Below are positions 5,252-64,000 of a DNA stretch of 64,000 nucleotides, piece after piece. The stretch is from NCBI GenBank assembly GCA_050084515.1, contig CM114271.1:11284001-11348000 (forward strand), written 5' to 3'. Numbering within the stretch: the stretch's first letter is position 1; every line of letters begins with the position of its first letter. The stretch comes from Blasia pusilla (taxonomy: Eukaryota). The notes below the pieces were generated by a model that made no database searches, was not told the DNA's origin, and was given only the letters and a program-made list of their open reading frames with translations. A program made the translations under genes and the position numbers.

Positions 5252-5289
5252 GTTCAAAGAACTCAAGGATCCAACTTAACTACAGCGTT

Positions 5290-13945: not shown

Positions 13946-14289
13946 AACAGATTCCTCAAAGCTTCGATGGAGTGCCTAAACGCAACTCACGAAGCGTTTC
14001 GTGATGAAGCGCCGTGACCCTTGAGCGGATGGGCTTGCCGAAATCGAACCTCAAAGTGTCGGGTGCTGGATCGTCGTAACCTTCCAACGAAGGGGTCAAT
14101 GTAATCGACTTTGGCAGCGGAAAGGTACCATCAGCTAGTGCCAGGAAGAGCACATAAAATCCGCGAAATGAAAAATGGAAATGAGCAAAATCTTAGCCTT
14201 TTATACTTTTCGAGCCGTTAAGCTGACCGTTGGGTCATTGGGTCGTATCGACGGCAACGTTGGCCGTTATGGAACTTTGCACATGGGAA

Positions 14290-15000
14290 CCCCGGAAACC
14301 CATCGGATACCGATGGGTTGCACACTTCCCTCATCTTGGGGATACAAGGCGAGGTACCCGGGCAACCTGTCCAAGACCGATGGGTTGCATGCTTCCCTCG
14401 TCTTTGGGTAACAAGGCGAGGTACCCGCGCCACGCGTCGGAGGCCAACTGGTTGCATGCTTCCCTCGTCTTGGGGTAACAAGGCAAGGTACCCAAGCAAC
14501 CTGTTTGAGACCGACGGGTTGCAAGCTTCCCTCATCCTCAGGTAACAAGGCGAAGTGCCCAAGCAACCCATCGAAGACCGACGGGTTGCACGTTTCTCTC
14601 GTCTTGGGATAACAAGGCGAGGTACCCGTGCAACCCGTCGGAGACCGATGGGTTGTACGCTTCCCTCATCTTGGGGTAACAAGGCAAGGTACCCGCGCAA
14701 TCCGTCGTAGACCGATGGGTTGTACGCTTCCCTCATCTTGGGGTAACAAGGCGAGGTACCCGTGCAACCCGTCGGAGACCGATGGGTTGTACGCTTCCCT
14801 CATCTTGGGGTAACAAGGTGAGATACCTGTGCAATTCCTCGGACACTGACGGGTTGCATGCTTCCCTTGTCTTGTGGTAACAAGGCGAGGAACCCAGGCA
14901 ACCGGTCTTAGACCAACGGGTTGCATGCTTCCCTTGTCCTTGGGTAACAAGGCGACAAAGCATAGTCCCGAGGCAACCCATTGACCTCCGACGGGTTACA
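14290..15000. repeat. Tandem array of ~10.5 units of 67 bp, each containing the palindrome
   Basis: The (A)ACAAGG anchor recurs at 14343, 14410, 14477, 14544, 14611, 14678, 14745, 14812, 14879 and 14946, an exact 67-bp period. A degenerate homologue lies at 1-340. Confidence 0.95.
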
Positions 15001-15004
15001 AGGT

Positions 15005-17737: not shown

Positions 17738-20700
17738 AAAGTTGTAGCTCAAGTTGAGAAGCGTGTGCACTATAGGGATTTCAAACTGCAGAAAACCAAG
17801 CAACCCGTCGGAAACCGACAGGTTGCATCAAGAATGTTTGTGCAACCCGTTGGAACTCGACTGGTTGCATGAGTGTCACACCCGTCCGAGCGCGACATCA
17901 TGCACGAGGAATGTTTGTGCAACACGTCGGAACCCGATTGGTTGCATGAGTGTGCAACCCTTTCGAATCCCAATGAGTTGCAAGTTGCATGTATACAAGG
18001 CCTGCAAATAGTTTGATGCGGATGGGTTGCAAGCCCCAAGGCTGCGAGTTAACTTGGTCTGCAACCCGTCGGATTCCGACAAGTTGTGTCTGTCTGCAAC
18101 TTGTCGGATTCCGACTAGTTGCCTCTGTATGCGACTCATCACATTCAGACAGGTTGTTGTTGTCTCCAAGTCCTCGCATCCAGACACGTTGCATCAGTGC
18201 AAGTTAATTTGAACCCGTAAAATTCCAATAGTTGCAAAGCTACCTATGTGGACACTTCTTGCAAGCCAACAAAATCCGACAGGTTGCACAAGGATTTTTT
18301 AGACCGGACCGGCCTGCTTCTCACAACCCGTCCGATTTTGATGGGTTGCAGTAGTAGGTTCCCGAGTGCTAGGTTGCAATAAAAGGTTATTGGGACATTC
18401 CAAGGATGTCTCCAACTTGCAACCCGTTTCAAGTCGGAGGCTGGAAAATCCATGTGCAACCCATCGGATTCCGATGACTTCCAGTTGGATCTTCCAGCCC
18501 GGAGTGGCCAAAGTTACTTGCAACCCGTCTGAACCCCACAGGTTGCACTAGGTGGTTCTTGGATGTTGCAACACGTCGGAAACCGACCGGTCACAGAGTC
18601 ATTCATGGGATGCCTCCGACTTGCAACCCATCTTGTTCCGACAAGTTGCTTTTTTCTTTGCTCATAGAGTTATTTTCGTTCCCTTCTCATATTTCTGTCG
18701 TTGCATGGATTGAACATTCATGAAAATGCCCTCTGCCCCAACATAAGTGGAGCAAAAAGTGTTCATTCCTCCTAGAGGTCATCACAAGCATGCCAAAGAA
18801 TTTCATTTGTGGAGGCATGCCAACAAGATCAGGCAAGAGCAATTATCGCGCCCCTACTCTCCTTGAACGTCAATCTTTAGTGTTGCGGAAGCGTGCGTTC
18901 AGTAGGTCACGAACTCATCGCCGATCTGCACCCAAACACGCACTCTCGTTAGTCGGGTTTGGCCAACCAGCGTTCCAACCCACCAAGTCCTCAACTCGGC
19001 GTCTCATTAAGCTCAACCTTCCTTAGTTCCTAGCTCCCAACACATGGCAAGTCCTTCAAGACTTGGAACAGACTTCCTGGTTAGTCCAGGGATCTGAAAC
19101 AGCACTTGCACGCCTAGCAATCCCAGCTATTCAACGGTCCTCGTGTGAGTTCCGAACCGAGACCCAAGTAGTTGAGTCGCGGCGTGAAATCCAAGAGGGA
19201 TGCCTAAAATCGCCTCAATGGACTTGGTGCAGGTTTTCCAACCCAACGCCCAAACTCGCGTTCCGTTCCATGCCCTTGAGCTGCCCCGCGGCGCCCAAAG
19301 TGGGGTTTGGGTTCCAAGCACTCTCGGAGACCTGCCCCCTTACTAGTACTTTTGGGGTTCTCCAATAACCCCTCCCCTTTGGGAAAAGAGGTTCGGGCCC
19401 TTCATTGTGGCCCTCAACCTGACTCCACTTACAGTTGTTTTCGGGTTGTATCTCGGCCGCTGCTTATGCGTTTGCAACAATCTTTGGTGCGTTTGGACCG
19501 GCTCTCCATAAGCTTTCCAACGCACCCTTATTTGCTCCAAAACCATCTTGGCGCTAAAAGTTATGGCCATAAATACAGTCGGAAACTCTCAAACGTAAGT
19601 GGCGTTCCAAATCCGGATCTTTCCTTTGGCAACCCCCTTCCTAGACTCGACTTCTTTCAAGTCTCATTCCGCGTTTGGTCCAGGTTTCTGAGTCACAACC
19701 ATAACACCTGAAACGCGATTCCTTGCTCGCGTCTCGTCTCTTGTCTCCTCTTTGAGACACCTCCAACGCGCAAACCATCTTAGCGTGAGTCCGCTAATGT
19801 TCTGATGTTCCGCTTGGTACTTGTTTGGTCATGAGGGTCGCGACAGCAATGGTACAGTCTGCAGCATCCCATATCTTCCTCAAAAAAGGCATAACAAAAG
19901 GAAAGGGGCCTTCAATTTATGAGCTCTATGTCAGGGCGGCTGTGAGATCTGGTGATGAGAAACTCTATGTGGAAGCCTTCAATCAGTGCGTAGCAGGAAC
20001 TCCTCTCGAGCAACATGTCCACATTGGTGGGGATATTTGTGGGCGTGTTTCAAGACGTCCCATACAGATGGTGGTAGAGCAGTCCAAGCGAGACTCGTGG
20101 AGACCAAATTAGTATCTTGACTTGAGGCAAGTGAAGAGGCAACATCGAGGAACGAACCCAATGATTGATTTGGATGAAGAAATTACGCCCTGGTATTCGG
20201 AGACCCGGGATTGCTCCTAAATCTGAGATGCAGTAACTTCTCCAAAATCACTGAATGTTTTTTTTTCAAAAGCCCTTCGTTGCTGGAAGTTCGCAACATC
20301 CGGTCGCTGGGGTAGTTCAACAGTATGGGATTCCGGTCATTGAAGTGGATTGCAACCTCAAAAGGTGGCATATATCTCCCAACAACTTTGAACGTGGACC
20401 CACTTGCAGGGCAAGATCTGATGGCATTAGGAGAGCATGCGGCACTTTCCTAAATAAGAAATGTACAAGGACTAGACGACCACTCCCTAGATTTTGGGGA
20501 CTCAAAACCTTTGATCGTTTCATGAGGACCGAGGATCAATTGAAGTACTTCTTCTGCCCAAATGAATCCTGCGCTTTCCAAAAGTCTTATCCGGCTGCCA
20601 TGGGAGCTCCAGAGAATACCCCCACGATTTGGCCCATTGCCGCAGGTACGAATTGCACTCAGGACAAAATGGATAATCTTACAAGTGTCCACTTGAGTCT

Positions 20701-43100: not shown

Positions 43101-43836
43101 TAAATAATCTTTTGGTCTGCCTTTACAGTTTTCTTTATTTTACTCTAAGTAAATGAGGTATCTAATGTAAATAATTTATTGTTATTCTCTTCCTGGAGTT
43201 TTTCACTCCCCAGGATCAATGGACTTCTAAGTCTACTAGAAGTGAAATGCAAACGTGGGCCAAAGAACCTGAACTAATGAACTATGCAGTTGATTAAAGC
43301 TGTTTTATTAGATTTGGTCGCCACCAGCTTATATCAAACTACCCTTGGCAATCTAGAAAGCTTTGACAAGGGACGATGTTCAGCTCTTGTAGATTGGAGG
43401 CAACTCCTAGTTGCAGTGTGGAGGTTACACGCCGGAGACCCAAATAGTAGGACTTTTCAGTTTTCAGATTCAGCTGTAATAAGGTTGATAAGGTTGAAAA
43501 TTGACTGATTCAGTAGGCAAAGAGTCCTTACAGCGTTTGGTAAGAAGTGGAGAAATTCTTCTATGCCTCGAGAAATTGAGTCATTGACTGGGATTATATG
43601 TGATGCAGGAAAGAGACAGCCAGATTTTGGGCAGACAGAATGGAAAACCTCAGGAAGGCGAACTAAACAGTGTGCAACAAAACTCTAGCTTAAATGTGGT
43701 GGTCATTGGAGTTTTGGTGACTTTTTTCGGGCTGGTTATGACTACTCATGTGCTACTTAAGAAGAAATTTCCAAGAGAGCTGACACCGAGCCGCGGACAC
43801 CATTCCCTGTTCATGAAGGTACATGAGAAGGTTTGA
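37152..43836 (+). CDS. TPST: Plant-type protein-tyrosine sulfotransferase, ~10 exons, type I membrane protein
   Basis: Predicted exons: 37152-37179, 37509-37704, 38626-38697, 39146-39431, ~39709-39858, ~40069-40171, ~40719-40853, ~41079-41185, ~42284-42403, ~42959-43090, ~43609-43836 (one of the short middle exons is uncertain). Motifs: LFFLHIPRTGGRTY, CPRSYDKLR, THDDFS, LRNPLDRVLSSYEFSVEVA, HNGATFQIAGLTNNS, MLYVGLTE, LNSLDVELY. Signal peptide MEALPLVARFLFLLLLPPIYA and a C-terminal TM helix. Confidence 0.92.
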
Positions 43837-44615
43837 AAACGTAGTTCGGTTAAAATGAAAAATTCTTGTGTATATTCCCGTTGTCTTTCTTCACATCTAC
43901 AGAGCATGACAGTTGATGTGATGCCAATTTTGCACCGTTGAGAATGGACTGAGGCTACACAAGTCTCAATATCTGTCATCCGGGTTTGGCTGTTTCCTAC
44001 TATACGCCTTGGAGGATGATTAGAGTACTGTTTAGAAATAGGAAAGCCAGTGGATCTAGATAACTTACATTTAAGGTGAGCAGGACAGACTACGATGTTT
44101 GCTTATAGAGGAGGATTCAGGCATTTCCTAATTTGGATTGTTTGAGCCATCTTAAATCTGGCTCAAAACTTTCGAACACATACCGTTCATCAGCTCATAA
44201 CTGGGACCTTGGGTAGGTTAAAACGCCATGGGGACTCGGCTTGGAAATTCTTGAGTGGAGGACAGGTGGAAAGGGTTCAAAGAAACTCTTGCCAGCCAAA
44301 GTAGACCTAAGGATTAGACTAATCGTCGGCCTGCAGTGTGCACTGTGTCCACTAAACTTGGAAAACCTGTCCTGGCGTCGAAGGTCGGGTTTCAGTAGTG
44401 ATGGCTCTTTGTACCTTCTCTCGTTCCATTTGAGATTTTTTTAATAAACGGAAGGTTATGAACATTTCGAACTGAGCGAGTGCCGTCAAAATTTACCTTT
44501 ACGGGCTGTGGTCTGACATCTAGCAGTTTAAAGAGGCTTCATAGCAGGTTGCGTGTGTGCAGGGGGAAGATTTTCAGCCTGATGACATCCTCTCTTTAAA
44601 ATAGCTGCAGTGTGG

Positions 44616-46822
44616 TTATTCTGACCCGAAACAGGCATCGTACACAAGACTGGCTACGAGCACTGATGTCATGTTGCGAACGAAAGCCCTTCGCTTTTTA
44701 TTCATGGCTTCACTTCCTGTTTCGTTCAGTTCTGGACCCAGGACATTGAGGAGAGCTCCAGCCGCACAGACCTGACACGGAGGGAACAGTCAGTAGGGGC
44801 TGGGATAAAAACCGTCGACTTCATAGAAGACTGTCAAAGCTAATTTTTCGAGCAAGTAATAAGAGTCATCGTCCAGCAAAGCTTCAAAAGTCGTAAACAT
44901 TCCGCGACCAAGGTGAGACTCACAACACCTGCGCCCGTACTTCAGAGTTCGAGAGCAGCCCTATTAGCAAAGGAAGCGCCTGGGACTCTCGGATTATAAT
45001 TCGACTTGCGACCTCGCGGGATATGTTCTGAAGCGCTCCTGCTGCCGAACCACAAATCGATGGATGACTCCCTTGGAGCAATTTGATCAGATACTTGATG
45101 CCGTGTTTTACGCGAATAATACGAATCGCATCCACGTCAGAGCTCATGTTGTGCAAAGCTCCAACAGCCCGAGCCTTAACCTGTGCAAACATAAGCGGAT
45201 AGATGTAACAAATAAACTCCATACGAGTATTTATTGAATCGTCGATGTACGTGCCTAGTGATCACGTAGTCCTAACGGCTGCAACTGTTTTCCACTCACA
45301 TTTATGGACGGAACATCAAGGAGCTTAACGAGCAGTGGAATGGCCCCCAGATTGCGGACGACACGGCGACCCTCTGGCTGAAAACATATGCTCTGCAAGG
45401 CGCCTGCTGCGTTAGCTTGTAGCTCCTCGTCATCTGACGCGAGAAATTCAACCTGCAAGGCGTGGAGAAGATGTTCCATTGACCAGAGTTGCAAAAGAAG
45501 AGACTAGACTCTTAAGTCGATTGCAAAAGAAGGGTCAATATTCTCTGTACTGGACGGAGCTCCGGTTTTGTACGATTGTAGATGACAGGTCTTAGTTCCG
45601 TAGTTCCATTCGAGAGAGGGCGATATTCTGCACGTTGGACGTGCTGGACATGATTTCGGATCGGCGATCGATGAGAAAAGAGCTGGAGATTTCGCGTGCA
45701 TGATGCATGTATCACTAGTGCAGCCCTACGCTTGAGTTTTCACATGTTGTATTTCCATGGTCTTGAGAGGGCTCGTTGACACTGACGAACGAGCTGGTGA
45801 AGTAGTACTTCACATACTTGCCAAGGTCCGGACAAAATTGGCACCAGAGAATCTCCTACAACAGTGTAGGAAGATGAGGGGGAAGGAAGAAGAGACCAAA
45901 GTGGCCGCACCGCCGCACTCGATCACAACTTTGACATTCTCCTTTTCATAGCACACGTTGAGAATGACGTTAGCACCCTCTGCGGCAATTTTGGCAATGT
46001 GTTTGGAGTTGTTTAGATGCTTGATGACAGCTGATATTCCTTCTTTACCAATCGATCTTCGAGTGATATGTTTCCTCGACAAAATCTTTAGGCGTCCCAA
46101 AGTTGGCAAGAGTTCGTGCCTTTCCTGCAACACTCTCGATGGTTCCTGTAGTACCAATTTCAAATGGTCTAAAGCCGCCCTGTCCTGCGTATAACGATGG
46201 ACGAGGTTGAGTTCATTTTACAGCTAGGAATTACTTGTACAGATCTGACTTTAGATACCCGGAAAAATCTGGAGGACTGCAGCCAAGATCGATTCTTCTC
46301 ATAGTAGAACGCTAATGTTAAGCTATGCGCGAGGCGCGAGAAGTGCATCTTCCGACAATAACTATCCCAATCTTCGAAAAGTAACCAAAGTACGGAATAT
46401 TCAATTAATCGACAAACAAAACCTCAGAAATGATCAATTTGATCAATTGACAAGTTTGGGGACCCGAACCCCACCGAAACCGCATATTAGATATCCTCAC
46501 TGAAGGATACATCCACGAGTCGAAGGAACGCAAGACCTGTCTCTTACTTTACTCCGGAAGATTGTGATAGATAACGATTCACTCCACTCCTCTAGCATCG
46601 TTCAACAGTTACCGGAAAAAAACAAGAAGAGTATATGAGATAACTGAAGCCTATCATCAATCCCATCCGAAACTCCGACTGCGCTCACAGCCTTTCCATA
46701 ATGAAGAAATGAACCTCGATAAGTTCGTTGTCCAATGTGGTGATAGCTTTATTCAATGTGTTACCGACATGTACGTCGGCACCATGGGCATGCGGTGCGC
46801 TGTTGTTGTAGACACGATCCAT
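44616..46822 (-). CDS. Armadillo-repeat protein, ~5 exons
   Basis: Repeated ARM signatures across GT-AG exons: AAEGANVILNVC, LQANAAGALQSIC..GAIPLLVKLL, ARAVGALHNMS, SAAGALQNIS, CAAGALLNVL. Stop TAA at 44616-44618. First exon (ATG at 46822) is tentative. Confidence 0.85.
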
Positions 46823-47569
46823 AATTCCGAATGCAAATGGTTGTTGAGCGATGCGGAAACGGCATAGGCGCACGCAATTTCTCGATCTCGTCGTCACAAG
46901 ATTGACACTCGTCTCTTGCAGTACAGATTTCTAAACTAAGATAATACCTCTACGTTATTGCGAGCTCTACGGTCCTACGCTCGCCTCTGTAGAGACTCGA
47001 GATTGGCGTCTCCAGCACACAAATGCAGCCACACACACACGGCCATCTTTCTCTCGTGCGACGGATGGGATATGCAACGTATGCGTATTCCAGCGTTAGC
47101 TTTATCCTCACTTTCGTGGCTAAAGTTGGAGAATCGCTTCCGTATCGACATCGCTATGCTGAGTCTGATCATATCTGTACACGACTCTCTCGACATTCTG
47201 CGTACATCCATTTCACGAGTAGAGGGGAATATTAGACACTTTTTAACTAATACCTAACTGGATCCCTACTTTTCACGTGTAGAACTGAATATTCTACGCT
47301 TCTAAGGAATACGTAACCGGATCCAACCTTTTCAGGAGGAGAAATGGAATATAGAATATTTGACACTAACTGGACCCGTCATTTTCACGAGGACGAAGGG
47401 AATAATTTTCATAACTAGACAATACGTATCGGAATCACTCCTTCTCAACCGGTACAAGTGGAATACTCGGCACTTACATGAAAAGCGAAACCAAATCCAT
47501 CCTTTTGAGCCAGTGGAAGTGAGATACATTACATGAAGTGCATTTTACCCTGCATCGTCTTGTTCGGTA

Positions 47570-49337: not shown

Positions 49338-49488
49338 TGTCGTGCGCATACACATCGCTACACAAGATACATCGTTGTCACCGAACACACACAATCCCAT
49401 GCTAACTCATCGCATCCAAACAACGAGACAAGAAGTACCAAAATATCTCCAATAAAATAAGATCCAATCTCTCTCACAACACCATAGT

Positions 49489-50111
49489 TGTCGTGCGCAT
49501 ACATATCGCTACACAACATACATCGCTGGTCACATCTACACCACACAACACCGATCTTCCCCACACACGGGTCGATCCACACATGTACAAAAATCAACTC
49601 ATACATATACATGGAGATCACACAAAAAAAATAAAGAGTAGTAAAAACGGCACACCCGGCCTAAAACTCCACTCCTCAATCTACATCGGCATATCGAGCC
49701 TCGTCCACCCTGTGCTATCAAGGAATCCGGACGCTGTGCTAGCGTCCTAGGTCCATTGTGTCAGGAACGTTGTTTCTGACAACTTTCATGTTGAGGTCTT
49801 TGACAGCCGGGTGACTTGTTGACCAAGTCACCCGCCCTTGGTAACCTGTGCGCGCAGGTTACCAAGGGAAGGGCTATTTTTAGGGGAAGAGCCTTTTGGC
49901 TCTTCCTAATCCTATATAAGAGAGGAAGATGGCTTTCCTAAGCCATCTTTCTCATGTTGGGCCGTTGGAGCACCTCCATTGTATGTGTGTGAGATAGGAC
50001 TATCCTCAACCTCATCCAACACCGTGGGACAAAGTTACACTCAAGATAGTCCGCTGGCTCCTACGCCCTATCCACGATAGATCTCGGCCTATCGGCTACT
50101 CAGATGTGACA
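49489..50111. mobile_element. Nested LTR-like insertion (TG...CA) inside the gypsy 3' LTR
   Basis: Starts TGTCGTGCGC and ends TGTGACA, flanked by duplicated TAGT. The empty site CACCATAGTTCTCACA is seen at ~60105. Confidence 0.75.
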
Positions 50112-50801
50112 TAGTTCTCACATGTGTGCACTCTCATATGTCTCTCTCAATGTCAAAGCAAACCCACTCTCCTCATGAGAGGCTTGAGTTACACACACAA
50201 GGTAAGCAAGACCATAGCTCCGCCGCCTCATGCCAAGAGGTTCAACAAAGAGAGAATAAGCTCTCAATCTCTCTCTCCTTGAGGTATACCCCTCCCCTCT
50301 CCCAAGCTCTCTCCATGGTAACATATGCTCCCAAGTCACCTCCTTGGCTCTTGACCTAATATAGGAGGTCAAGGGCCACTTACCAAAAATAGAAAGTTGA
50401 CCATATACTCAAAATGATACTTATCTAAAATAGTAAGTTCCTCAATATGGCTCCAAATGAGCCGAAACGAAGGGGAAACCTGCTCTCTAAGATTTCTCGG
50501 GGCTTCAACATGTCATTCTCGACCTACTGAGCATGTCCTCCACTACCCACGAAGGCGCTCTATTAGATCTCACCGATCTATCCTAAAAGACGTGATAGCT
50601 GTCTATCAAAATATCTCCAATCGCCCCCCTAGCTGGTGGTTAGGTCCCTCTAACTCCAGATAGCCATATATCCCTACCTACCATGACATACATCTCTCGG
50701 ACGCTAAGAGCAAGAAGGCCCAGTGCTCATGTGGCCCCATCGTTAGTCGCCTTCTTGTCATCCATATCACAGACACAAGTTAGAATGTAGAACTACCTAC
50801 T

Positions 50802-50950
50802 CTATGTACATTTGGGACACATCCATCGTCCCTGAGGAACCCTGGTGAGAGGTGGCGTCAAAGATGCCATATGCCATCTTCTCGAACACCCATCACAGAC
50901 TAGCATAGTGGTTGCACCATAGACGGAACCACACAACATACACCGCAAGC
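50802..50950 (-). pseudogene. PHD finger at the pol C-terminus
   Basis: CMLC...MLVCDGCSRRWHMASLTPPLTRVPQGRWMCPKC (C4HC3 with one C>S). A second copy lies at ~63830-63975. Confidence 0.9.
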
Positions 50951-53053
50951 CTGTAGGAACTATTGCTAAGCTCAAATCAAATATACCGTCAATGTTCGGA
51001 AGATGATATGGCGCACAGTTATGCTTATGATCCTTCCAAAGCATACCATCACGTCCCTCCAATAAGAGAACACCGGATGGCAAAACCTCACACACTCTCA
51101 AGATGGTGCGCCCTACAGTCACATCCAACGTCGTGGATGCCGTCTTCTGCAAGTAGATATAGTCTCCCTAATGAAACCTTCGGATAGTAGGTCGATAACC
51201 ACCTCCCCCAATAGTCGCATACCTCAACATATCCCGATGTTGCACAATCGCCAAGTTCTCAAATGCCATGGGCATCACTCTCCGAAACAATTGAGCCCTC
51301 TGAGAACATGTTCGCATCCATACATCAAGGTCATCAAGGTTCAACACCTCACCAACATCTCGATGAATGGCCGTAGGTAAATCTGGTTCTCGGCCATAAA
51401 ACAACAAGTACGCTAAGGATGCATGCTTGCTAAATCTGTTTCCCATCGCCAATCATGGCAACTAAAGGTCCCAATCTCCTAGGTGACCTCTCTGCAAGCC
51501 ATACTTGCGTAGTCCTCTCTTCACTGTCTGCACAACTCGCTCCCCTAGTCCATCTACCTTAGGATAATCTCGCGAAGTAGTGCGGTGGTCGATCAGTGCC
51601 TGATCACACAAGGCCTAAAATGCCATGCGGAACTCTGTACCTTGGTCTGTCAACACCTCAGCTGGTGCGCCGTAATGACTCAACACTCGATTTAGGAAGG
51701 CATACGCTACTCCCTCACTCGTTTTGTCAGGCAATGCAACCAACTCTATCCACTTCGAGAAGTGCTCGACCATCCATCACCAAGACATAACGACTATGGC
51801 GCTCCGTCAAAGGCAAAGGTCCTGCAAAATCCAAACTCCATCTATAATCTAAACCCATGATCGGAAGTGGATGCAACTGTGGAGTTGGAGCATTGAATGA
51901 TGCTTGGACTCAATCACACACCATGCATCTGGCAACAAACTGTTGAACGTCAGTCTGCATGCCTTGCCACCAATACTAAATTTGGAGCAAGCTGTATGTC
52001 CACTTCACTCCAAAATGATCCAACTCCTCATGGGCATGACGCACCAAATGTGTTCTTTGCGAAGGATGAGGCACTACACACACTCTACCATCCTCTCACA
52101 CTTGCAATACATATGTGCCCTCCCACCGGAACCGTCTAGCTTGTTGTAGGATCCGATCGCTCTCTCTAGCACCAACTGTGCTCACGACGCTGCCAATATG
52201 CACGTACTCCAAGACCACTCCATCGTCATGAATGTCTTGACCACCTATCGTCTCCTCACCGGCCTCTGGATCTAAGGACTCTCCATCAGACCTCGCCATC
52301 GAAGTCTCAGCAATTTGGCTCTCCATAGCCAACATGCCCAAATAGGCTGTCGCATGCCATCTTGGCACCAACTCCTCATCACTCTGACCATGCCAACCAG
52401 CTTCAGTTGCATCTCGCTGACTCAGACATGGGTTACAGCTCAAACTATCTGCATCCTGGTTGAGCGTCCCAGGTCTATGCACCACTTGGAAGTCATACTC
52501 CTGCAACAAAAGAGCCCACCTTGCAAGCTTCCCTGTAAGCTTGTCGAACTCCATCAACCACTTGAGTGGCTGATGATCAATAATGATGATAAAGGGATTT
52601 CCGAATACATAACATCTAAAATGTGTGATAGCCCACACTGCAGCCAAGCACTCACCCTCATACGAGCTATACATCGCCTCTGCAGCGTTGTTTGAGCGAC
52701 TAGCATAAGCCACCACAAACTCTCTATCATCATCGTCATGCTAGGTGAGCATGGCTCCAAGCCCCAACATGCTCCAATCGATATGCAACTGGAAAGGACG
52801 CCCCCAAATCCGTCTCCTCAATATGGGCGCGGACGTCAATCTATCCTTGAGCATCTAAAATGCTCTCTCTTGCTCATTCCCCCAGTGCCACTCCTGATCC
52901 ACCTTGGTCATCAAGGTTAGCGGATTCGCAATTGAATTGAAACCCTTAACGTACCGTCGATAGAAGTTTTCCAATCCCATGAATGCACAAACTCGACTCA
53001 CATATGTAGGGCGTGGAATGTGTGAAATAGCCTCTACCTTTATTTGTTGCACA

Positions 53054-54263
53054 TGTGATACCCATAATTTTGTAATCTTGAAGAATATATCTTTTTATTC
53101 AACAAAGACTCTTGTATATTATGATTATTTATTATTATGAGGAAGAATAAGTGAATCACAAAGCTCTTGGGACAAGGGAGAGAGATGGAAGATCAAGGAT
53201 TTGCCTTAGAGAAGAGGAAAACGCAATAACGAAGTCTCAAGACTCAGAACGAAGCTCAACGAAGATGTACGAAGCTCTGTTTTTGTAGTGCTTCGCTACA
53301 TAACGCAGCATCACGAAGAAAATAAGAAAGAAGTACTTCGCTCTTTAACGAAGCGCGAAGCACGAAGTACGAAGCACCGGAGATAAGAACGAAGCATGGA
53401 GTACTTCGTCCTCCTGAAGTCCAACGAAGCGAAGCTAAGAAGGACTGTGATTTCAAGAGACACATGTTAAAACAGCTAGACTAGGAAAGGGCGTGAACCT
53501 TTGTATCAAATTGGTAGTTAGGACAGTTTTGTAGTGCGGACTCACAGGGATCATAGGAAAAGCTAAGAGAACCATAGATCTAGGTAGTTAGAAATAGTGA
53601 AGAGACACTAGCTTCATCAAGAACGTTTCGAATCTTTGGATCACTTCCACTCCAGCGAATATTTAAGAAGCAAGGCAAAAGCCATAATCATCATTCTCTT
53701 ACAAAGTCCTTATGTTGTAGGAATGGTCCGAGCAAGAGAGTAGTACCCTCTCAAGCTTGTATACACTTTGAAGCTTTCTCGTTCTTGATGGAGTAGTAAA
53801 GCAATCATTCATTCATTCTGATGTGCGATGATTATGTCTGAGTATTCTTTTTGGGTTTGCAGAGTGAAGAGTGAATCAGACGAACCTTTCTCATCAATGA
53901 AATAATCAACCTGAGTTGTAGGAAATCTGTTTGACAGAGAGTAACCTGCCGAGACGGATTGAGTTGCGAAAGTAGGAGAAGCCAACTTTTGTGTTGAGAT
54001 CTCTGTGAGGTTTCTTGATGTCGAGAGGAAAATCTACCTGAACATGCTGTCAATTCCACTAGAAAGAATCGAGAAAACATCCTTTGGTACTAAGAAAGAT
54101 TAGAAGATATTGATAAGACATTGAATATAACTCACACACCTTTAAATACAACTATTACAACAGAATTGTAATTCCGAACTCTCTTTTCATCAAACAATGA
54201 TCCTCTTAGGGATCGAACTTATTAAAACGACTATAAACTAGAAACACTTGTACATTACATATA
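53054..54263 (+). mobile_element. Solo LTR inserted into the gypsy RT; same family as 16524-17737
   Basis: Runs TGTGATACCC to TACATTACATATA, with flanks GCACA/GCACC. RT coding (PGGLG / QQIKVEAI) resumes across it. Confidence 0.85.
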
Positions 54264-55379
54264 GCACCAAGTCCCCCAGGGTATATTGTATGACCCAAGT
54301 ACTCAATCTGGTCATAGAAGAACTTGCACTTGCCTGGATGTACCTTCAGCCCATGTAACTGCAATCGTCGAAACACCTCCTCTAGATGTCGCTCATGCTC
54401 CTCAACCGTGGCGCTAAAGACTACGATATCATCAATATAACACCTAGCAAAATCTTGACTTGCCAAGATCCTATCCATGACCCTGTGAAACTCAGCCGGG
54501 GCGTTCTTTAACCCGAATGATAAGAACCGCCACCGGTACAAACAATCCTTCCCGTGAGGATCGATGCCCCAAAATGCCGTCTTCGCTTGTCCTCCAATCT
54601 GATAGGCAGCTGATGGTATCTGGCTCGCAAATCCAATGAACTGAAGATCTTTGCATGCCCAATCGTATCAAAGATCTCCTCAGGGGTGGGCATGGCATAC
54701 CTATTGGACTTCGTGTGGCGATTGATAGGTTGGTAATCTCCACACATTCGCCTATCCGTCCAGTTGCCATTCAAATCCTTCTTGGCGGGCATCATAGTGG
54801 CAGATGCATACTCTCCATGCGACATCTCCACGAGTCCTGTTCCAACCAAAACCTGGTTCCTACTCTGAATCAGAGCCCTCTCCATGTCACTCTATCAGTA
54901 GGATCGTCGAAAGATCGACGTGTCACTCGACAACTCAATGCGGATCCTTGGATCCTTCAGTGTATTCAAATCATGTATACTAAATGTAAAATAACTCCTA
55001 TAACTCCGAAGGAAGTGGTGTATCCAGCACCGCTCTCCTCTTGTCAACTTAGGGCCCATATTTGGCTCCCAAGTCTCCATCGTGACTACAATAGGACTCT
55101 CCGGCGTGGATGTTGGTGGTTGCTATGGTGCAACCCCGTCTTGGACAATAAAACTCTCATCTCCACGTGCAGTACCCAGAACCACGCTGTGGCTATCATC
55201 TCCTCGCATACATGCAAAACATCCCAAGAAGTCCAAGGGTATCTCTCTCGATCACCCATGGTGTGTCGATCTCCTCGAGTCTCGCCCCCAGCCACTGCCT
55301 CAACTGTCTCGGTAGGCATGGGGCTCACCAACGCAACAGCTATGATCTGTCACATCCTCAAACAACACTGCTCAGCTAC

Positions 55380-56340
55380 TCCTAAGCTGAAATCCATGTC
55401 AAGCAGTTCAAGTCCATCGCTTGACCCAAGACATGATGTCGTGATGCCTCCAATAGTGATGGTATTGCCGTCACTCCTGTGGGGAATCCCATTGCTCGCT
55501 CTCGCTCATCGGCGTTGGGCTCCACCAACCTCTATACCTGGTCATCCCAAACCAAGCCGGGTCTGGCCTTCTTGAATGCATAGGAAGCGGGAAAACTCAC
55601 CAATGTGGGAAAGGCGGCTCGTGGCATGCCAAGCCTCTTGACCACAGTCAACGGCGGTTGATCATTGTGCCTCACTGCCTGTGATTGACGACCCATATCC
55701 AATATAGAATCCACCAATAAATTGTAGGGACGCTCCACTCTCGCATAAGCCCTCCACAATACCTCATAAGGTAGCAAGTGGGTCCACCAAAGACGCGGGT
55801 GGTGTGCTCTAAAACCTACACTCGCCGGATCTAACAACATTGCCGGGCCGATCCATGCGCGCACATGATGTGCATTCGTCACCACGCGGGACCTTGAATC
55901 GCCCAAAATTGGCACAATCTCCAAAATGTATGCTGGAGAACAAGGCTGAAGCTCCTATAAATGTCGCAAGATCCGCATCATCTCCCACAACAACCTGGAC
56001 TATTGTCAACTAACCCGCTACCTCGTCCAACACTCGATTGGCCCTGACACGGCCAACCAGCAATGACTAAGTCTATGGTCCCTACCCGCTCCAAGTCTTG
56101 CGCCCCCAACAATGAAATGTCCCTCAGTAGGGAACTCTGGTAATCCTGAATGGAGAACGTAGATAAAAAGTCGAGAAAACGGAGGCGTAACAACGCCATA
56201 TGGTGAAGTGAAGTGCGCCTCGCAACATCATCAGTCTCCACATATAGGTACAGCTGCACGTGCACTCCAGCGTGCAAAATAGCAGCTAACCCAGTGCTGA
56301 TCCCTCCAAAGATCCCTCTCAGATGCGCCATACAATGGGT
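55380..56340 (-). pseudogene. C5-cytosine DNA methyltransferase domain inside gypsy pol, frameshifted
   Basis: Motif I GIFGGISTG; motif II YVETD; motif IV DLVIAGWPCQG with catalytic Cys; motif VI-like YILEIV (~55920); motif VIII-like ASVGFRAHHPRLWWT; motif X-like GQAMDLN (~55410). Confidence 0.9.
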
Positions 56341-59300
56341 GTGGTATCCAAGGGCGTCATTACAACACTCTCGGCTACCTCGGGTTTCTCTGGCCCGTCA
56401 CGCTCTGGTGCAAAGTTCTCGCTCCATGCGGTCTGCACATGCTCAGTGGCTAAGCATCAAAGCTCCTCAATCGAGCCCCAAAGCGGCACCTCTCCTTCAC
56501 GGACTGATGCGGCTAGAAATGTCAGGAACGGGAGTATCCCTTGCATGAACATGTCCCTCAATCAAATCACTAGGCCAAGTGATGGCAGTGCTAAATGCTG
56601 CTAAGGTCTCCATCTCTCTTGGCCGTGCTCAATCACCCCACCTGTGAATCAAACGGGTAATGAGCTAAGGCGCCCATCACCTAATTGCCATCATGGTATG
56701 TAGGATGCTGATTCCTCCCAATAATCCAGGGAAAATCCCATCGGGTATAATATTGCTCCACCAACCAAGACGTCGTAGGACTCTGCATTAGTCACTATCG
56801 CCTTGGGTCCCACCACGGACTCATCTGTAGGATGTCCTGGGCAAATCCTCACTACAACCTCTTGTCACGTGATATACTGTGTGGTACTCGCTCCACCCAA
56901 GGATGTCTCTATTCGGAATGGACAACGCTCCACATCGGCTCTCGTCAAGCCCAATCCTCTGAATGACGCTTTCCCCAACATCAGGGGTTGCGCTCCTGAA
57001 TCCAACAAGACGCGCTACGGACTAAAAGCTGTACCTCCGGGACTCACCAACTGCAAGACCTCTCCTTAGTTATCTAGCAACACAACACCAAGAGAAGCCA
57101 TGGCACGCTCTATCGCGGATCTAGCCAGCATCTCCGCCATCCTAGCAGCCGCACCTTGCCATGAATCTGACGTGGACGGCCCGAGCATCCGCTCCAAGGG
57201 CGGGTCCATCACCTCCTCTGCAATCACCTCTAAACATGATGCAAGAAATCCAACTCCACGCTCACATAGTGTAGCGGCCAGCCAAAAAACCTCGGCGGGC
57301 GTACCTCCCAACGTCATAACATGAGAAGCAGAAAATAAAGGAGCGTGGTACACAATGGTGGCCGCCCCCAACAACGTGCTTGACACATGCCCCCCTGAGC
57401 ATCAACAATAGGAGTCGTCGCACTCGCTTCTCCCATTGCCCTCCATGCCTACACACCAACAACATCACCAACTCTCCAGGAACTCTAATCAGGACCCATC
57501 GATGGGGTCCTCATTGCCTTGGACAACGTGAAAGATTGAGGAAGCCTAGTCTGTTTCCTTGCTTCCCCTGGCTGTGGATCCAACTCTGTGGCTACTCCAC
57601 ACGTCACAACTGTGGCGGCCTCTATCTGGGCAACCCCGCACATCCAAACAGGATCCTCCATATCTGTGGCTACTCCATATGATATCGATGCCATGGATCC
57701 GGCATCGGGTAACCTCAATGCCATAGCGGCAATCTACTCCTGTAGCTGTTGTATCTGAGCAGCCATCCCAGTTCTCCGTCCGCACCCCTTGGTAGGTCGC
57801 CCTCAACTCAACAAAGAACTCAACCACGCGGTTGAACCTAGGACGAACCCAACTAGATGGTGCAACTGCTCCAGTGCGAGTGATCCCTCTTAAAACATCA
57901 CTAGTGGAAGAGGAAGCAGCCTCTCTTGACTCTTCCTCCTTATCTGGGAATGGCTCCGTCCATGACACATAGTGTGGGTCATATTAGAGTCACCATGCCT
58001 CAATCTCTTGGGCATATCTGTGGGAGAACTCATGGTAATCGTCCATGGGCGCCCCCTCCAAATGTTGGAACATACCATTCCATGCTATAAATGGGTTGAG
58101 CTCTCTAGAGTTCCTGGCCCGTTGTGAGTCACACCAACTCCTAAACTCCGCAATGAAGACGTGTAGCTCTATAGTGCCTACAACACCTAAAAACCTACGT
58201 GGTCCTCTGCCCCGATCGTCCATCTCGTACGCCCAACTGGTAGGTCCACTCTATGTGTATGGTGGATCACTAACACACTCCTCTATACGCTCCCCCTCGT
58301 CTGAAGACGACACAGAAGGAGATCAAGGTGGTCTCTCATGTGGAGATCCTCAAAACCTCGCACCACTCCGGGTAAACTCCCGAGAGCTACTCTTAGGTCC
58401 ACTACCTCATCTCTCAAAATCCCAAAAAGACGCCGTGATGGCCCTCGTGCCCCTCTCACATGATCACTCTCAATCTCGCAAGTAATCCCTCCATCACTCA
58501 AACTAAATATATGGCACTCAATTTACACTCTCATTGAGACGTGTGCTATGCATCAACAAGCAGCATGGTGCAGCAAATCACTGATCTATTGTCTCATCGA
58601 CAAACCATCCTCAACTCTGGACATCCCACACACGTCTATGTCCCCTAAACCCATACAACATTGATGCTCCTAGCATCAGCACGAAACCCAATATCCCAAA
58701 TAACTTCCCAATATCCGAAAACCCCTCACACGTGTAGGGTAAGAGACCAGAATGGGTAACCTGACAATAATGTGGATGTCGCTCCTCGAAAACTGCAAAT
58801 CTCGACCCCAACTCGGTCGTGGAGACAACTCCTCCAATTAGCAAGTCTTACTCCTCTTGTACTAACGCTGTTCAAACCTCCTCGATGTGCGGTGTAGGTC
58901 CAACGGTCCGGTGCGGCACTAGCAACACGGAACGGCTACATATGGCACGACACTCGAGAATGGGGTGCGACACTCGACGGCATACCCTCCTCAATCAGCA
59001 ATTCACACGCTCTGCTCCTTAGTGAAGGAGCGGCTCCGCGATCAAGACAGTACGGTGCAGCCACGAGCAACACGGCACGGCACGGCAATCGGTGGCATAT
59101 TGCGGCTACAAGCGTCACAGCACGCTACTTGATCGTCGTAAAGCGGCTACCAATCACAACATAGCAACATGAAATGAAAACTCAAACACCATAACCCGAG
59201 GTCACCTGCCATCACTGGTTGATGACGAAACGATGACGATGGCAGCCAAAAAAAAGTACGTGGTGGAGATGCAAGTTAGAGAATTAACGGTCGTCATGGA

Positions 59301-61249
59301 AGACCCTCCACTCCATAATGGCGGCAATGGCAACCAAAGGGTGGACAACGGACGAACACGGCTCTGAGCAGCGATAGGCGGCGGCGGTGGCCGATGGTGG
59401 ACGGTGGACGGTTGGCCGTTGATGGTGACGGCCGACGGCTGACGGTGATGGTCGATGGAAAACTGTTGAGGGTGACTATGACCATTGACGATGACTATGA
59501 CGGTGGTGGCCGCCGCCGGCATGGCGGCTGGTTTAGGGTTTGAACAATTTAACCCTAAAAATCGCCTAATAATGGCAGTTTTGCAAGATTGACCATAACT
59601 TTTTGCTCGCAACTTCAAATTATGCACAGTCTATTGCACAACGTGCACAAACGATCTACAACTGCGTAAAAAAACATTTGGAATTGAACATTCTAGTAAA
59701 AATTGACGGGGACAATCATAAAGCCCAATATCTCTTTCTCCTACACAAAATTTGGCAGCACTTTCGCGCTGATTTCTCCCAACGAAAATGTAAAACATGT
59801 GAGAACACAAATCAGCAAGTTACATGGTGCTCTTGAGAGCACCAGCATGGGGCAACTTGCCCCCATACTCAATCCCTATAAAAAATTGGGCAGCACTTTC
59901 GTGCGCCACTCTTCCATCCAAAAGATCGGCAAAGCAAACATCACAAGTAAGCGGCTCTTGGTCCGGTGAGCACTCCCATGAACCGCTCAATAGGGAATAC
60001 GATCCCCAACCTGCAAAAACAACAAGTGACCAGCAAGCTCTCCCATGAAGCTCTCTCACTCACTCATTCTCTCATTGTAAAATAAGATCCAATCTCTCTC
60101 ACAACACCATAGTTCTCACATGTCTCTCTCAATGTCAAACCAAATCCACTCTCCTAATGAGAGGCTTGGATTACACACACAAGGCAAGCAAGACCATAGC
60201 TCCGCCGCCTCATGCCAAGAGGTTCAAGAAAGAGAGAATGAGCTCTCAAGCTCTCTCTCCTTGAAGTATACCCTCCCATCTCCCAAGCTCTCTCCATGGT
60301 AACCTATGCTTCCAAGTCACCTCTTTGGCTCTTGACCTGATGTAGGAGGTCAAGGTCCACTTACCAAAAATAGAAAGTTGATCATATTTTCAAAATGGTA
60401 CTTATCTAAAATAGTAAGTTCCTCAATATGGCTCCAAATGAGCCGAAACAAAGGGGAAACCTGCTCTCTAAGGTTTCTCGAGGCCTCAACAAGTCATCCT
60501 TGACCTACGGAGCCTGTCCTCCACTACTCACAAAGGCGCTCTACTAGATCTCACCGATCTATCCTAAAAGACGTGACAACGAAGTCTGGATCCACTTGGT
60601 TTGCATTTGGCACGTTGTCCAATTGGGGATGAGAGGATAACCACTCACGATGCAATGCGGGATATCATTTCTTAATTGCTCGGGAGAGTGGCTTCCATGT
60701 GTAGAGAGAGAGGCACTACTCCATGCGGCCCGTTCCCGTGAGTTGAAGAATATGTAGTAGTGGTTGGGATTCATGCAGAAACATCCAACATCAGAGGCAG
60801 ATCAGAAGTTGCGTTAGCACTAGCCATGAGGGTCGGGAAAATTTCGGAGTTGAGAGGTGCAAACGTTGTCTCTTCCTAAATTTTTTTTGTCTTTAACTTA
60901 CAAGCACCCCGTGAAAATCCATATTTGCATCCACAATTTTCCCACTAATGGTAGGTCAACTCCCTCCAACATAACTTTTTCACTAGTTTCTAACTCCAAG
61001 TGATAACTTGACTTGTCTAGTCCTCTAAAAATAATTGATGTTTACCTTTCTACCTCCCACTTGAGGAATTTCCAAAGAGATCTCAAAATTTCACTCACAT
61101 ATTGGAATCGTGGCTATGATAGCCCAAAGAAAATTGTCGTAACTTCATGCTCACACAATCAAATCACGCACCTTTTCTTACATAGTGTGCACAACTTCCT
61201 ACCCAATCTACAACAACATCAAATTGGTTTCTTCATTAGACCGAGTTGG

Positions 61250-62869
61250 GGTTGACATTTGCAGTTGCTAAGGAGCGATAGAGAAATTTATTTAGGTTAC
61301 CCATTCTGGTCTTTTGCCTTGCACGTTTTAGGGATTTCCGAGTATTGGGTAGTTATTTGGGATATTGGGTTTTGTGTGGATGTTGAGAGAATCATTGATG
61401 TATGGGTTTAGGGAACATAGACCTATGTGGGATGTCCATAGTTGAGGGTATGTCATGTCAATGAGATGATAGGACACTAGCCGATTGCCACACCACGTCG
61501 CTTGTTGCCGCACAACACACGTCTCAGTGAGAGAGAATGTAGATTGAGTGCCACATATTTAGTTTGAGTGATTGAGTGATTACTCATGGGATTGAGAGTG
61601 ATCGTGTGAGAGGGGCACGAGGGTCATCATGGCATTCTTTTGGGACTTTGAGAGGCGAGGTGGTAGACGTGAGGGTAGCTCTAGAGGGTTTACGCGGCAT
61701 GGCGCGAGGTTTCGAGGATCTCCACGTGAGGGACCGCCTTGACCTCCTTCTGTGTCGTCTTTAGCAAGGGGGAGAGTGTAGAGGAGTATGTTAGTGATTC
61801 ACCACACACAATGAGTGGTCCTACCGGTTAGGCATATGAGATGGACAACATGGGTAGAGGACCGCATAGGTTTTCGGGTGCTATAGGCACGATAGAGTTG
61901 CACAACTTTTTTGGAGAGATTAGGAGTTGGTGTCACTCATAGCGGGCTAGGAACTCCAGAGAGTTCAACTCGTTTGAAACATGGAATGGAATGTTCTAGC
62001 ACTTAAAGGGGGCACCTATGGACGATTACCATCAGTTTTCCCAAAGATATGCCCATGAGATTGAAGATTGACTCTACTATGATCCACATTATGTGTAATG
62101 GACGAATCCGTTTCTCGATGTGGAGGAGGAGTCAGGAGAGGCTTCTTCCTCTTCCATGAGTGATGTTTTAGGAGGAGTAACTCACAAAGGAGCAGTTGCA
62201 TCGTCCAGTCGGGTTTGTCCCAGGTTCAACCCCGTGGTTTAGTTCTTTGCAGAGTTGAGGACGAGCTACTAGGGGGTACAGATTGAGAAGTTGCAAAACA
62301 TCCACGACTTCCAAAGACGCATGGGTGAGAGTTTGTATGGGGCCTACACTCGCTTGCGCCGGTTGATTAACATCACTCAGGGGGATGACAGAGTCCCAGA
62401 CTATCTAGTCATAGTACGCAATGTTGGACCGACTCCTGCGGACACGGGTGCGGGAGGGGTGCTTCTTATGAACACCTCACCTATGTTAAGAGATGTTTTT
62501 AGGACCGCCGAGAATATTGAGTGCAAGATGGCAAAGGAGAGTGTAGCCACCATGGGTTCTAGGCAAAAGCAATCACGATTACCTATACCACCAGTGCAAG
62601 AACGTGGATTCTGAGATAAGTCTGTGGCACCACGAGCTCAGGAAGGATATAGGGAGGCGTGCCATAGAGAACTACGTCTTCATATGTGGCTCAGCAGCAG
62701 TCGCCTATGATTATTTGTCGGGCATGTGGTGGGGGCACAGCTTGTTGCTATCGTTATATGTGGAGCCACCGTAGAGTTGAATCCATAGAGAGGGGAAGCC
62801 AGGAAACAGACCAGGCTTCCTCAGTCTTTCACGTTGTCTGAGGCGATGAGGACCCCATCGATGGGTCCT
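61250..62869 (+). mobile_element. Second fragment (5' leader and gag) of the same gypsy family, opposite orientation
   Basis: Reverse-complement homology to ~57490-58800, e.g. GIESDRVRGARG versus CEIESDHVRGARG. Ends abruptly at an LTR junction. Confidence 0.85.
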
Positions 62870-64000
62870 TTCGTGCGCATACACATCGCTACATAACATA
62901 CATCGCTGTCATTGAACACACACACAAATACACACGATCCCATGCTAACTCATGGCATCCATACATAGAGGCGAGACGTACCAAAATATCTCCAATTAAA
63001 GTTAGATCCAATCTCTCTCTACACTATCTCATACCATAGCTCTCAAAGGTGTCCACTCTCTCTCATGTCAAACCAAACCCACTCTCCTAATGAGAGGCTT
63101 GGATTACACTCACAAGACAAGGGACCATAACTCCGTTGCCTTATGCCAAGAGGTTCAACAAAGAGAGAATAAGCTCTCAAGCTCCCTCTCTTGGAGGTAT
63201 ACCCCCTTCCCTCTCCCAAGCCCTCTCAACCGTAACCTATGCTCGCACGTTACCTCCTTGGCTCTTGACTTGCTATAGCGGATCAAGGGCCACTTCCAAA
63301 AGTGGAAAGTGAACTATTCCCAATATGGAAACTTACCCGAAATAGTAAGTTTCTCTATATGGCTCCAAATGAGCCGAAACGAAGGGGAAACCTGCTCTCT
63401 TAGGTTTCTCTGGGCCTCTGCAAGTCATTCTCAATCTCCTAGGCATGTCCTCCACTACTCGTGAAAATGCTCTGCTAGATCCCAACGATCTATCCTAATA
63501 GTCATGACAGCTATCGTGCGCATACACATCGCTACACAACATACATCGCTATCATCGAACACACAAGAAACAATTACACACCATCCTATGCTAACTCATG
63601 GCATCCATACACAGAGGCGAGAAGTACCAAAATATCCAAGCGCCCCCCTAATTGGTGGTTAGGTCCCTCTAACTCTAGATAACCATCTATCCCTACCTAC
63701 CACGATATACATCTCTAGGACGCTAAGAGCAGAAAGGCCGGATGCTCATGTGGCCCCATCGTTAGTCACCTTTCCGTCATCCATATCACAGAAAAAGTTA
63801 GAATCAAAACCTACCTAGTATCTCCTCTATGTACATCTGGGACACATCCATCGTCCCTGAGGAACCCTAGTGAGAGGTGGCGTCAGACATGCCATATGCC
63901 AACCTCTCGAACTTCCATCACAGACTAGCATCATGGCCGCACCATGGGAAAAACCATACAACATACAACGCAAGCGTGCAGGAACTACTGCTAAGCTTGG
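62870..64000 (-). mobile_element. 3' end (LTR ~62870-63509 and PHD region) of a third copy of the gypsy family, running off the window
   Basis: Homologous to 49338-50970. Confidence 0.88.

Follow-up and report, generated by a model that had tools for sequence, protein, structure and literature searches.

A bryophyte Ty3/gypsy retrotransposon lineage that encodes a DNMT3-type cytosine methyltransferase ahead of a conserved readthrough-type stop codon and ends in unusual terminal repeats

We describe a Ty3/gypsy retrotransposon family of liverworts and mosses in which a DNMT3-type C5 cytosine methyltransferase precedes the reverse transcriptase (RT). This kind of element is already known from Klebsormidium; what is added here is its occurrence in liverworts and mosses, a stop codon predicted to be leaky, and a replication route proposed from the odd ends of the element. 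The copy from which the analysis started lies in a 64-kb window (the whole stretch of DNA analysed, 64,000 nucleotides), where gag, protease, C5 methyltransferase, RT, RNase H, integrase and a PHD finger follow one another on the minus strand. We propose that it is a dead copy from an old, high-copy, transcribed bryophyte Ty3/gypsy lineage that would use stop-codon readthrough, integrate by way of a circle and methylate its own cDNA; taken as a whole, we consider this account moderately probable.

The window copy of the element

The initial annotation had assigned the element to Ty3/gypsy, and the assignment holds: the gag–PR–RT–RNaseH–INT order is present, the closest solved match of the RT is Ty3-G Gag-Pol, and a Pfam search for a tyrosine recombinase, a trait of DIRS and Ngaro elements, found none, with rve and H2C2 integrase domains instead. 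That annotation had not mentioned the A-coding-B-A-B ends, the putative self-priming site or the PHD finger at the C-terminus, which are described below. The following features are all on the minus strand unless stated otherwise. The 5' copy of a terminal repeat, A (60078–60578), starts with TGTCA and contains a stretch complementary to the putative self-priming (Tf1-like) primer-binding site that adjoins it (60063–60077; 11 nt complementary to position 337 of A). An N-terminal part of gag follows (57957–58250), about 800 bp of gag being absent relative to siblings; in an uninterrupted sibling frame gag gave a weak PF03732 match (E 0.007), and gag-asp protease Pfam matches are present in distant relatives. 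Alignment to siblings places an aspartic protease (LLDSG) at 57026–56718. It is followed by the decayed DNMT3-type methyltransferase (55385–56313), the C-terminal domain of a Gag–PR–DNMT frame; by a conserved in-frame stop in the readthrough-type context TAG-CAA-CCA (55117–55125); and by a frameshifted RT (54915–54293; RVT_1 E 1e-22). An unrelated 1.2-kb insertion, to which no strand is assigned, separates RT from RNase H (53084–54261). A further copy of it lies at 16526–17737; the two AT-rich copies are in opposite orientation and 87% identical, and this element is probably a solo LTR of another family. RNase H (52453–52800; RT_RNaseH E 3e-26) precedes an integrase with an H2C2 zinc finger and rve core (51411–52038, placed by alignment, with the Pfam matches on the sibling frame) and a C-terminal PHD finger (50802–50945; PF00628 E 1.6e-9).

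At the 3' end, a polypurine tract (PPT; 50621–50631) stands before a second repeat, B, and not before A. Next come a remnant of this internal B with a CA-gc-T(G) junction to A (50598–50620), the first part of the 3' copy of A (50112–50597), a 623-bp unit inserted in that A (49489–50111), and the end of A with a terminal B that ends in CACGACA and forms the right end of the element (49338–49488). The 623-bp unit has family termini (TGTCAC...CACGACA) and ACTA duplicated on both sides; it is either a solo A-B unit or a derivative of a related family. The two copies of A are 92.5% identical (K2P 0.080), and no matching target duplication was found in the flanks of the window's own copy. A first reading as simple paired LTRs (50132–50595 and 60114–60576) was rejected, the pair being repeat A only.

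The window also holds the 3' end of a second copy, PHD-B-A-B (62868–64000, minus strand), and, adjoining the element, an inverted fragment of the 5' region and gag of the same family (61239–62289, plus strand). A multi-exon host gene with armadillo repeats occupies 43700–47300 on the minus strand (PF00514, E about 1e-10). A 26-bp imperfect palindrome (GCAACCCGTCGG...CCGACGGGTTGC) recurs in dispersed form about 38 times over 1–18600, some copies lying in a 67-bp tandem array at 14219–15054; these copies are possibly subterminal repeats of a DNA transposon.

A DNMT3-type methyltransferase domain

A frameshifted C5 methyltransferase between protease and RT had been proposed from the letters alone, and both its position and its frameshift were borne out. 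The natural methyltransferase domain of a sibling copy aligned to 56313–55391 (minus strand) in two frames, with 56% and 67% identity (E 7e-103), and six motifs follow in order: I (about 56290–56311, its 5' part truncated), II (56227–56241), IV with GWPCQG (56041–56058), VI (55913–55927), VIII (55792–55807) and X (55412–55430). The family has all of these, including PC in motif IV, EN in VI and RxR in VIII; the window copy is damaged. Against all three siblings compared, it carries single-base gaps near 55999 and 55392. A stop codon also interrupts it prematurely near 55530, and motifs VI and VIII carry substitutions, so that the copy is dead. The Pfam profile that had been suggested as a check, PF00145, missed the window fragment (17.5 bits, below the cut-off of 22) and recognised the uninterrupted sibling frame (36.3 bits).

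By sequence profile and modelled fold, the domain is of the DNMT3 type. In a single-sequence search, the closest solved relatives were DNMT3A/B/C (E 2e-9), with DRM2 at 5e-5. With a profile, DNMT3A/B gave E 1e-17 to 4e-13, compared with 2e-7 for a plant DRM-type entry and 3e-6 for M.HaeIII, again among solved relatives. A single-sequence fold was discarded (pLDDT 37). A structure model built from 68 sequences reached pLDDT 96.5 and matched DNMT3A/B best (Foldseek E 1e-19; Z 29.6, rmsd 2.5 Å over 270 aligned residues), the best bacterial enzyme scoring Z 25.4. Since its motifs are not permuted, the enzyme is not a DRM. The catalytic Cys is retained in 28 of 30, 18 of 20 and 74 of 76 aligned copies in three sets; catalytic residues are the majority state in all three, and the motif VIII arginines are damaged more often. 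A DUF3444 search for a host DNMT3 gave a DnaJ-DUF3444 gene, with no methyltransferase within about 19 kb.

The methyltransferase is a family trait under selection

The 961-bp stretch that carries the domain had 5,055 candidate matches in the 390-Mb genome, and the 40 that were scored are 88–100% identical. An exact pattern coding for AGWPCQG occurs at 1,619 places in this genome and exact B-nn-A junctions at 1,362, with 0 for the control in each case. When loci were chosen by RT alone, 26 of 30 carried the domain no more than 1.5 kb upstream, or 25 of 29 once the window's own locus is set aside. Each of the four lacking it is rearranged in its own way: one by an inserted repeat A, one by an internal deletion, one by truncation and one by a 1-kb insertion. 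The own-genome sampling covers two subfamilies. Divergence between the two A repeats of a copy ranges from 0 to 0.08 in 12 copies, and insertion must therefore have continued until recently. At L087/L114 the two A repeats are identical over 518 bp and the coding region is full of stops, as either recent mobilisation in trans or gene conversion would leave. Units of the family are repeatedly inserted in other family copies (the window unit at 49489–50111; L250, L094, L286). One ACTATGGTG stretch of repeat A is the site of the window insertion and also of the right flank of L286, and may be a hot spot for insertion.

The domain is also present in NCBI proteins of Marchantia polymorpha (Mp8g17980, Mp6g11220, Mp8g15430, MARPO_0063s0090 and MARPO_0008s0049), Calypogeia fissa and three Sphagnum species, and these named proteins support the earlier suggestion that such elements persist in land plants. 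Gag-protease-DNMT is the order in the long Marchantia models and in one from S. fallax, and two of these models continue into RT. DNMT sequences from the 390-Mb genome are 75–80% identical to those of Marchantia, Calypogeia and Sphagnum. This similarity, a gene with the FLZ domain, a land-plant marker, and eight contigs of 29–69 Mb beside one of 14 Mb suggest that the host is a bryophyte, whereas the occurrence in land plants rests on the named proteins. A match to IFT57, taken as a marker of flagella, fell below the cut-off. Of 80 metagenome loci, 51 had enough DNA to look for protease, which is upstream in 47, and 65 had enough to look for RT, which is downstream in 55.

A profile search of 1.84 billion representatives returned 417 at E 1e-30 or better. 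In the best 150 of these 417, most of those with recognisable neighbours have the enzyme between RNase H and integrase-PHD. Such proteins (P0081, P0095, P0099, P0111, P0113 and about 80 others) are diverse gypsy polyproteins with a related DNMT3-type domain between RNase H and integrase and a C-terminal PHD finger, and we found no description of this arrangement in the literature. A profile search limited to longer named proteins of 3,486–5,000 aa gave none. In midpoint-rooted FastTree trees, built without any named Klebsormidium or cellular DNMT3 sequence, elements of the protease-DNMT-RT type group together: 26 of the 110 DNMT sequences (support 0.996) and 12 of the 57 RT sequences (support 0.995) make up a single clade in their respective trees. 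Viral contigs gave six weak partial matches (33–42% over 47–74 aa); prokaryotic genomes gave four weak matches and one full-length match, a whole element in a genome bin. No close viral or bacterial donor is seen with the few patterns used. A 9-kb contig filed as uncultured cyanobacterium (L271) has a full methyltransferase (51%), a TAG-CAA-TCA stop and an RT linker, and is most likely DNA of a plant or alga that entered a genome bin.

Pooled pairwise dN/dS between lineages, from pairs that are not independent, was 0.10–0.23 for DNMT, 0.13–0.15 for RT, 0.20 for protease and 0.07–0.15 for integrase, so the sequences indicate that the methyltransferase is under purifying selection between lineages. 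Within families the values were 0.6–0.9 for DNMT and 0.3–0.7 for RT, protease and integrase, which decay after insertion explains. The broken state of the window copy and of most copies, and the high within-family ratio of DNMT, are what one would expect if the enzyme were a one-off capture, a nested insertion or a functionless passenger. Its fixed position within the family and in other species, the low ratios between lineages and the congruence of the DNMT and RT trees make that reading extremely improbable, and its one-off-capture part is already refuted. Sibling elements without the domain had been named as the finding that would expose a capture; the presence of the domain in 25 of 29 siblings and at the same position in other species shows instead that it belongs to the family.

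A conserved stop codon separates the methyltransferase from RT

The methyltransferase had been thought to lie within pol, in a continuous PR-DNMT-RT frame that intact copies would reveal. In these families this was not borne out. In the window an in-frame TAG (55123–55125) separates DNMT from RT, and sibling frames are likewise split by one conserved TAG. In one sibling, a stop-free Gag-protease-DNMT frame of 1,254 codons is followed by a single TAG and, in the same phase, by an RT-RNaseH-integrase frame of 934 codons. ORF1 is thus Gag-protease-DNMT3 with the conserved stop at its end, and RT-RNaseH-integrase-PHD comes next in the same frame. Among own-genome copies (30 examined in each set), 25 of 26 and 28 of 29 that could be aligned have the stop, as do 61 of 62 aligned metagenome loci (80 examined). 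Its context is exactly stop-CAR-YYA, with UAG-CAR-YYA being the readthrough consensus of TMV (PMC3159437), in 22 of the 26 and 22 of the 29 own-genome copies and in all five more distant loci inspected, four of which are only about 50% identical in the enzyme; in 58 of the 62 aligned metagenome copies it is stop-CAA-CCC, one base off the TMV consensus. Two distant relatives, P0039 (2,240 aa, with a PHD-like cysteine pattern at its end) and P0085, have no stop between DNMT and RT.

The family is transcribed. In three stranded RNA runs of 10–12 million reads, 4,506–4,893 reads per run matched one full copy at 90% likeness; the species label of these runs is shared with one carrier of the element and is not certainly that of this genome, and only about a fifth of the reads are 99% alike. 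Almost all reads are sense and spread across the whole coding region. The methyltransferase is covered at a depth of 44–72. Depth declines within the 3' A and is 7–10 in the final bin, which contains the end of this A and the terminal B. Loose read ends indicate that the window's subfamily is transcribed too.

We propose, with considerable confidence from the motif and its conservation, that leaky readthrough of UAG-CAR-YYA yields RT and integrase, so that DNMT would be produced and packaged in the same proportion as Gag and would outnumber RT. Because DNMT ends the Gag-PR-DNMT frame before the stop, it is probably made at Gag levels. Read depth does climb towards the 3' end, from about 50–70 over the methyltransferase to 105–130 over RT, as it would if RT and integrase came from a separate internal or spliced RNA and the stop were a true terminator. 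However, the rise is gradual, as 3' bias predicts, no GT-AG joint is among the 14 joints listed in the RNA, and both the frame and the CAR-YY context are retained across lineages whose linker is otherwise unalignable; we regard a separate RNA as quite improbable. The exact TMV-type motif stands here, as in TMV (PMC3159437), at an in-frame stop before the polymerase. The difference from this signal and from MuLV gag-pol readthrough is that the stop here comes after Gag-protease-DNMT3 and not after Gag; readthrough of it is predicted.

Terminal repeats and integration signals

Copies of the family do not show the ordinary LTR layout of two identical bounding LTRs with a PPT next to the start of the 3' LTR. 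They read A-coding-B-A-B, with an A of 368 or about 500 bp and a B of about 105 or 125 bp, beginning with TGTCA and ending with CACGACA. Both ends were found in 15 of 20 extended copies, 11 with exact 4-bp duplications, three matching at 3 of 4 positions and one mismatched. A preference for NCGN targets, a trait of the Phygy clade (REXdb; PMC6317226), was not seen, none of the 14 duplications read having a central CG. Of 30 junction loci, 29 have the PPT ahead of the internal B, and in 27 a second B adjoins the end of A, the A-to-B join being nearly always precise to within 1 nt. At the same loci B and A meet as CA-nn-TG, where nn is GC in 10, AC in nine, GT in nine and AT in two, the pattern expected from deamination of a GC spacer. 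Both subfamilies of this genome and metagenome loci retain the junction CACGACA-nn-TGTCAYG, and so does L189, with an enzyme of only 50% identity. The A-coding-B-A-B layout also recurs in metagenome loci L132, L136 and L145, and PPT-B-junction-A in the distant L189. In L278, L282 and L277 the B-A spacers measure 4 nt (about 30 nt in one) and not 2 nt.

No tRNA-type site follows the first A. Instead, all copies compared (14 of 14 and 5 of 5) have 9–16 nt there that could pair with one constant position within A, about 25–30 nt behind a TATA-like stretch. The complementarity extends over 9–14 nt at the same position of A in the 14 copies, compared with at most 9 in random controls, and over 13–16 nt in all four siblings of the window's subfamily.

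Two A-to-B junctions are atypical, L070 retaining leftover PPT sequence and L069 carrying a deletion. The permuted order A-B-A-internal-B was found at 0 of the 30 junction loci. Cross-matching of coordinates gave a single B-A-primer-site case (L276), which is a head-to-tail dimer. Solo A-B and A-internal-B copies were considered as proof of double cutting of a circle and set aside as unusable: L279 and L280, 21 kb apart, share the same right flank through a local duplication, one with a full B-A-B end and the other a solo A-B, and solos therefore arise by recombination.

Proposed replication route

With a primer site after A and a PPT before B, ordinary reverse transcription yields (B-A)-internal-(B-A). 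The placement of these signals makes it very likely that the minus strand would be self-primed by the 5' end of the RNA and the plus strand primed from the PPT before B, the functional LTR being B-nn-A and the linear cDNA (B-A)-internal-(B-A). B seems to occur only once in the RNA. To reach the integrated form, the two ends of this cDNA, at the right of A and the beginning of B, would have to be joined and an internal CA-nn-TG cut. In the step that we favour, with some reserve, the cDNA ends would be joined into a circle that integrase opens at the internal CA-nn-TG nearest the new junction, giving A-internal-B-A-B with a 4-bp duplication. The PPT remnant of L070 and the deletion of L069 fit junctions of end-joined circles. 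A symmetric circle also predicts A-B-A-internal-B, and its absence at all 30 loci leaves the choice of one site unexplained.

The main rival to the circle places the ends in reverse transcription itself: RT would copy B again by an end-to-end template jump, and integrase would trim the linear product internally. A one-sided outcome is more natural on such a route, the A-to-B junction is nearly always precise, and RT overrun could have left the PPT remnant of L070. Yet the end of A shares no homology with the beginning of B that could guide the jump, and the primer site after A and PPT before B already predict (B-A)-internal-(B-A) cDNA; we consider a template jump possible and distinctly less likely than the circle.

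Role of the methyltransferase

We are evenly divided on whether, as we suggest, a packaged DNMT3 methylates the cDNA or circle before integration, probably at CG, and so would protect it or pre-mark the new copy. This inferred role is the weakest step of our account. It is the most economical idea in view of the predicted stoichiometry of the enzyme and the CG activity of SymbioDIRS-Dnmt3, which methylates CG de novo in yeast (PMC5890265). KnitGypsy-Dnmt3 gave no methylation in yeast, a result that the same authors call inconclusive (PMC5890265). We rejected CpG depletion as a footprint of self-methylation: the observed/expected ratio is 0.57–0.72 in the element and 0.67 in a host gene, and no depletion beyond that of a host gene is present. 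C-to-T differences between the two A copies are most frequent in CHG (24 of 354), followed by CG (24 of 458) and CHH (77 of 3,677), a pattern for which host silencing alone suffices.

The enzyme might instead serve integration, by binding or methylating the CpG-containing CA-nn-TG junctions and thereby deciding which site is opened, or by acting with the PHD finger on target chromatin. This would accord with the conservation of CACGACA-nn-TGTCAYG as far as L189, with the use of only one of two equivalent sites (no permuted copy at 30 loci), and with the company that A-coding-B-A-B ends keep with DNMT3 in both KnitGypsy-Dnmt3 and SymbioDIRS-Dnmt3 (PMC5890265). However, distance from the joined ends, about 105–125 as against 370–500 bp, could explain the asymmetry without methylation; the 14 target duplications also show no CG preference. 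An integration role strikes us as unlikely, and methylation of cDNA or circle remains our preferred reading.

Relation to known elements

The nearest described element is KnitGypsy-Dnmt3 of Klebsormidium nitens (de Mendoza et al. 2018, PMC5890265), of which the bryophyte lineage would most likely be the land-plant continuation. The two share the Gypsy domain set, a non-rearranged intronless DNMT3-type enzyme under purifying selection, and DIRS-like A-coding-B-A-B repeats. KnitGypsy-Dnmt3 is described with DNMT and RT in one Pol ORF, while in the bryophyte family the two are separated by a conserved stop of the readthrough type; it has few copies, whereas here over 1,600 have an intact catalytic motif and the hosts are land plants. 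The available text of PMC5890265 does not mention a PHD finger, self-priming, target duplications or the replication route. SymbioDIRS-Dnmt3 (PMC5890265) also combines DNMT3 in a retroelement with A-coding-B-A-B repeats, but it is a DIRS element with a tyrosine recombinase, in contrast to the DDE integrase and 4-bp target duplications found here. The self-priming elements Tf1, Tj1 and Tcn1 (PMC4600332, PMC6317226) likewise have a primer site that adjoins the 5' repeat, is complementary to its interior and lacks the tRNA-type TGG; they differ in having ordinary paired LTRs and no methyltransferase, and Tcn1 has a chromodomain where a PHD finger is found here.

EpiLTRs of Cymbomonas and Euglena (bioRxiv 10.64898/2026.05.21.726589) are also LTR retrotransposons with a C5 methyltransferase and a chromatin-reader domain, but their enzyme is sister to DNMT4 and they add an adenine methyltransferase and a chromodomain; their authors treat the streptophyte Gypsy-DNMT3 as a separate acquisition. 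Cellular plant DNMT3, such as MpDNMT3b (Mp5g09290; bioRxiv 10.1101/2021.02.12.428880), belongs to the same enzyme family by structure and profile. These are multi-exon host genes, whereas Mp8g17980, Mp6g11220 and Mp8g15430 are other loci and begin with Gag and protease.

In the open literature, with subscription journals and Repbase outside its scope, we found no report of a DNMT3 gypsy element in land plants, of the presumably leaky stop or of a replication route, and the available parts of PMC12344493, PMC9477723, PMC12885004 and bioRxiv 10.1101/2022.06.16.496473 hold no bryophyte report. Two recent papers, one of them bioRxiv 10.64898/2026.05.21.726589, speak only of 'streptophytes' in their available text, with land plants unnamed; their supplementary trees may include bryophyte sequences.

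Implications

Tentatively, we extend these observations to an LTR lineage reaching from charophytes to liverworts and mosses, Marchantia polymorpha among them, that would integrate by opening a cDNA circle at an att site inside the LTR and not by joining the cDNA ends, would package DNMT3 at Gag level to methylate that circle, and would be a single branch within a far larger, as yet unnamed radiation of gypsy elements with DNMT3 and PHD domains. The priming signals are of standard kinds but stand in unusual places, which leads to the proposal of circle integration at an internal site, a route that, if true, differs from textbook LTR integration. LTR finders that expect paired LTRs and a flanking duplication would misdraw A-coding-B-A-B elements.

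Until now, DNMT3 in retrotransposons has been an oddity of dinoflagellates and a single alga, lacking both a tractable host and a known role. In bryophytes, counts of methyltransferases, and de novo methylation as well, may owe something to enzymes that such elements encode. The conserved, presumably leaky stop suggests that the enzyme is wanted in many copies per particle. With hundreds to thousands of transcribed copies in bryophytes, and with Mp6g11220, Mp8g17980 and Mp8g15430 as unrecognised models in Marchantia, the question of why a transposon carries a silencing enzyme becomes testable in a genetic model.
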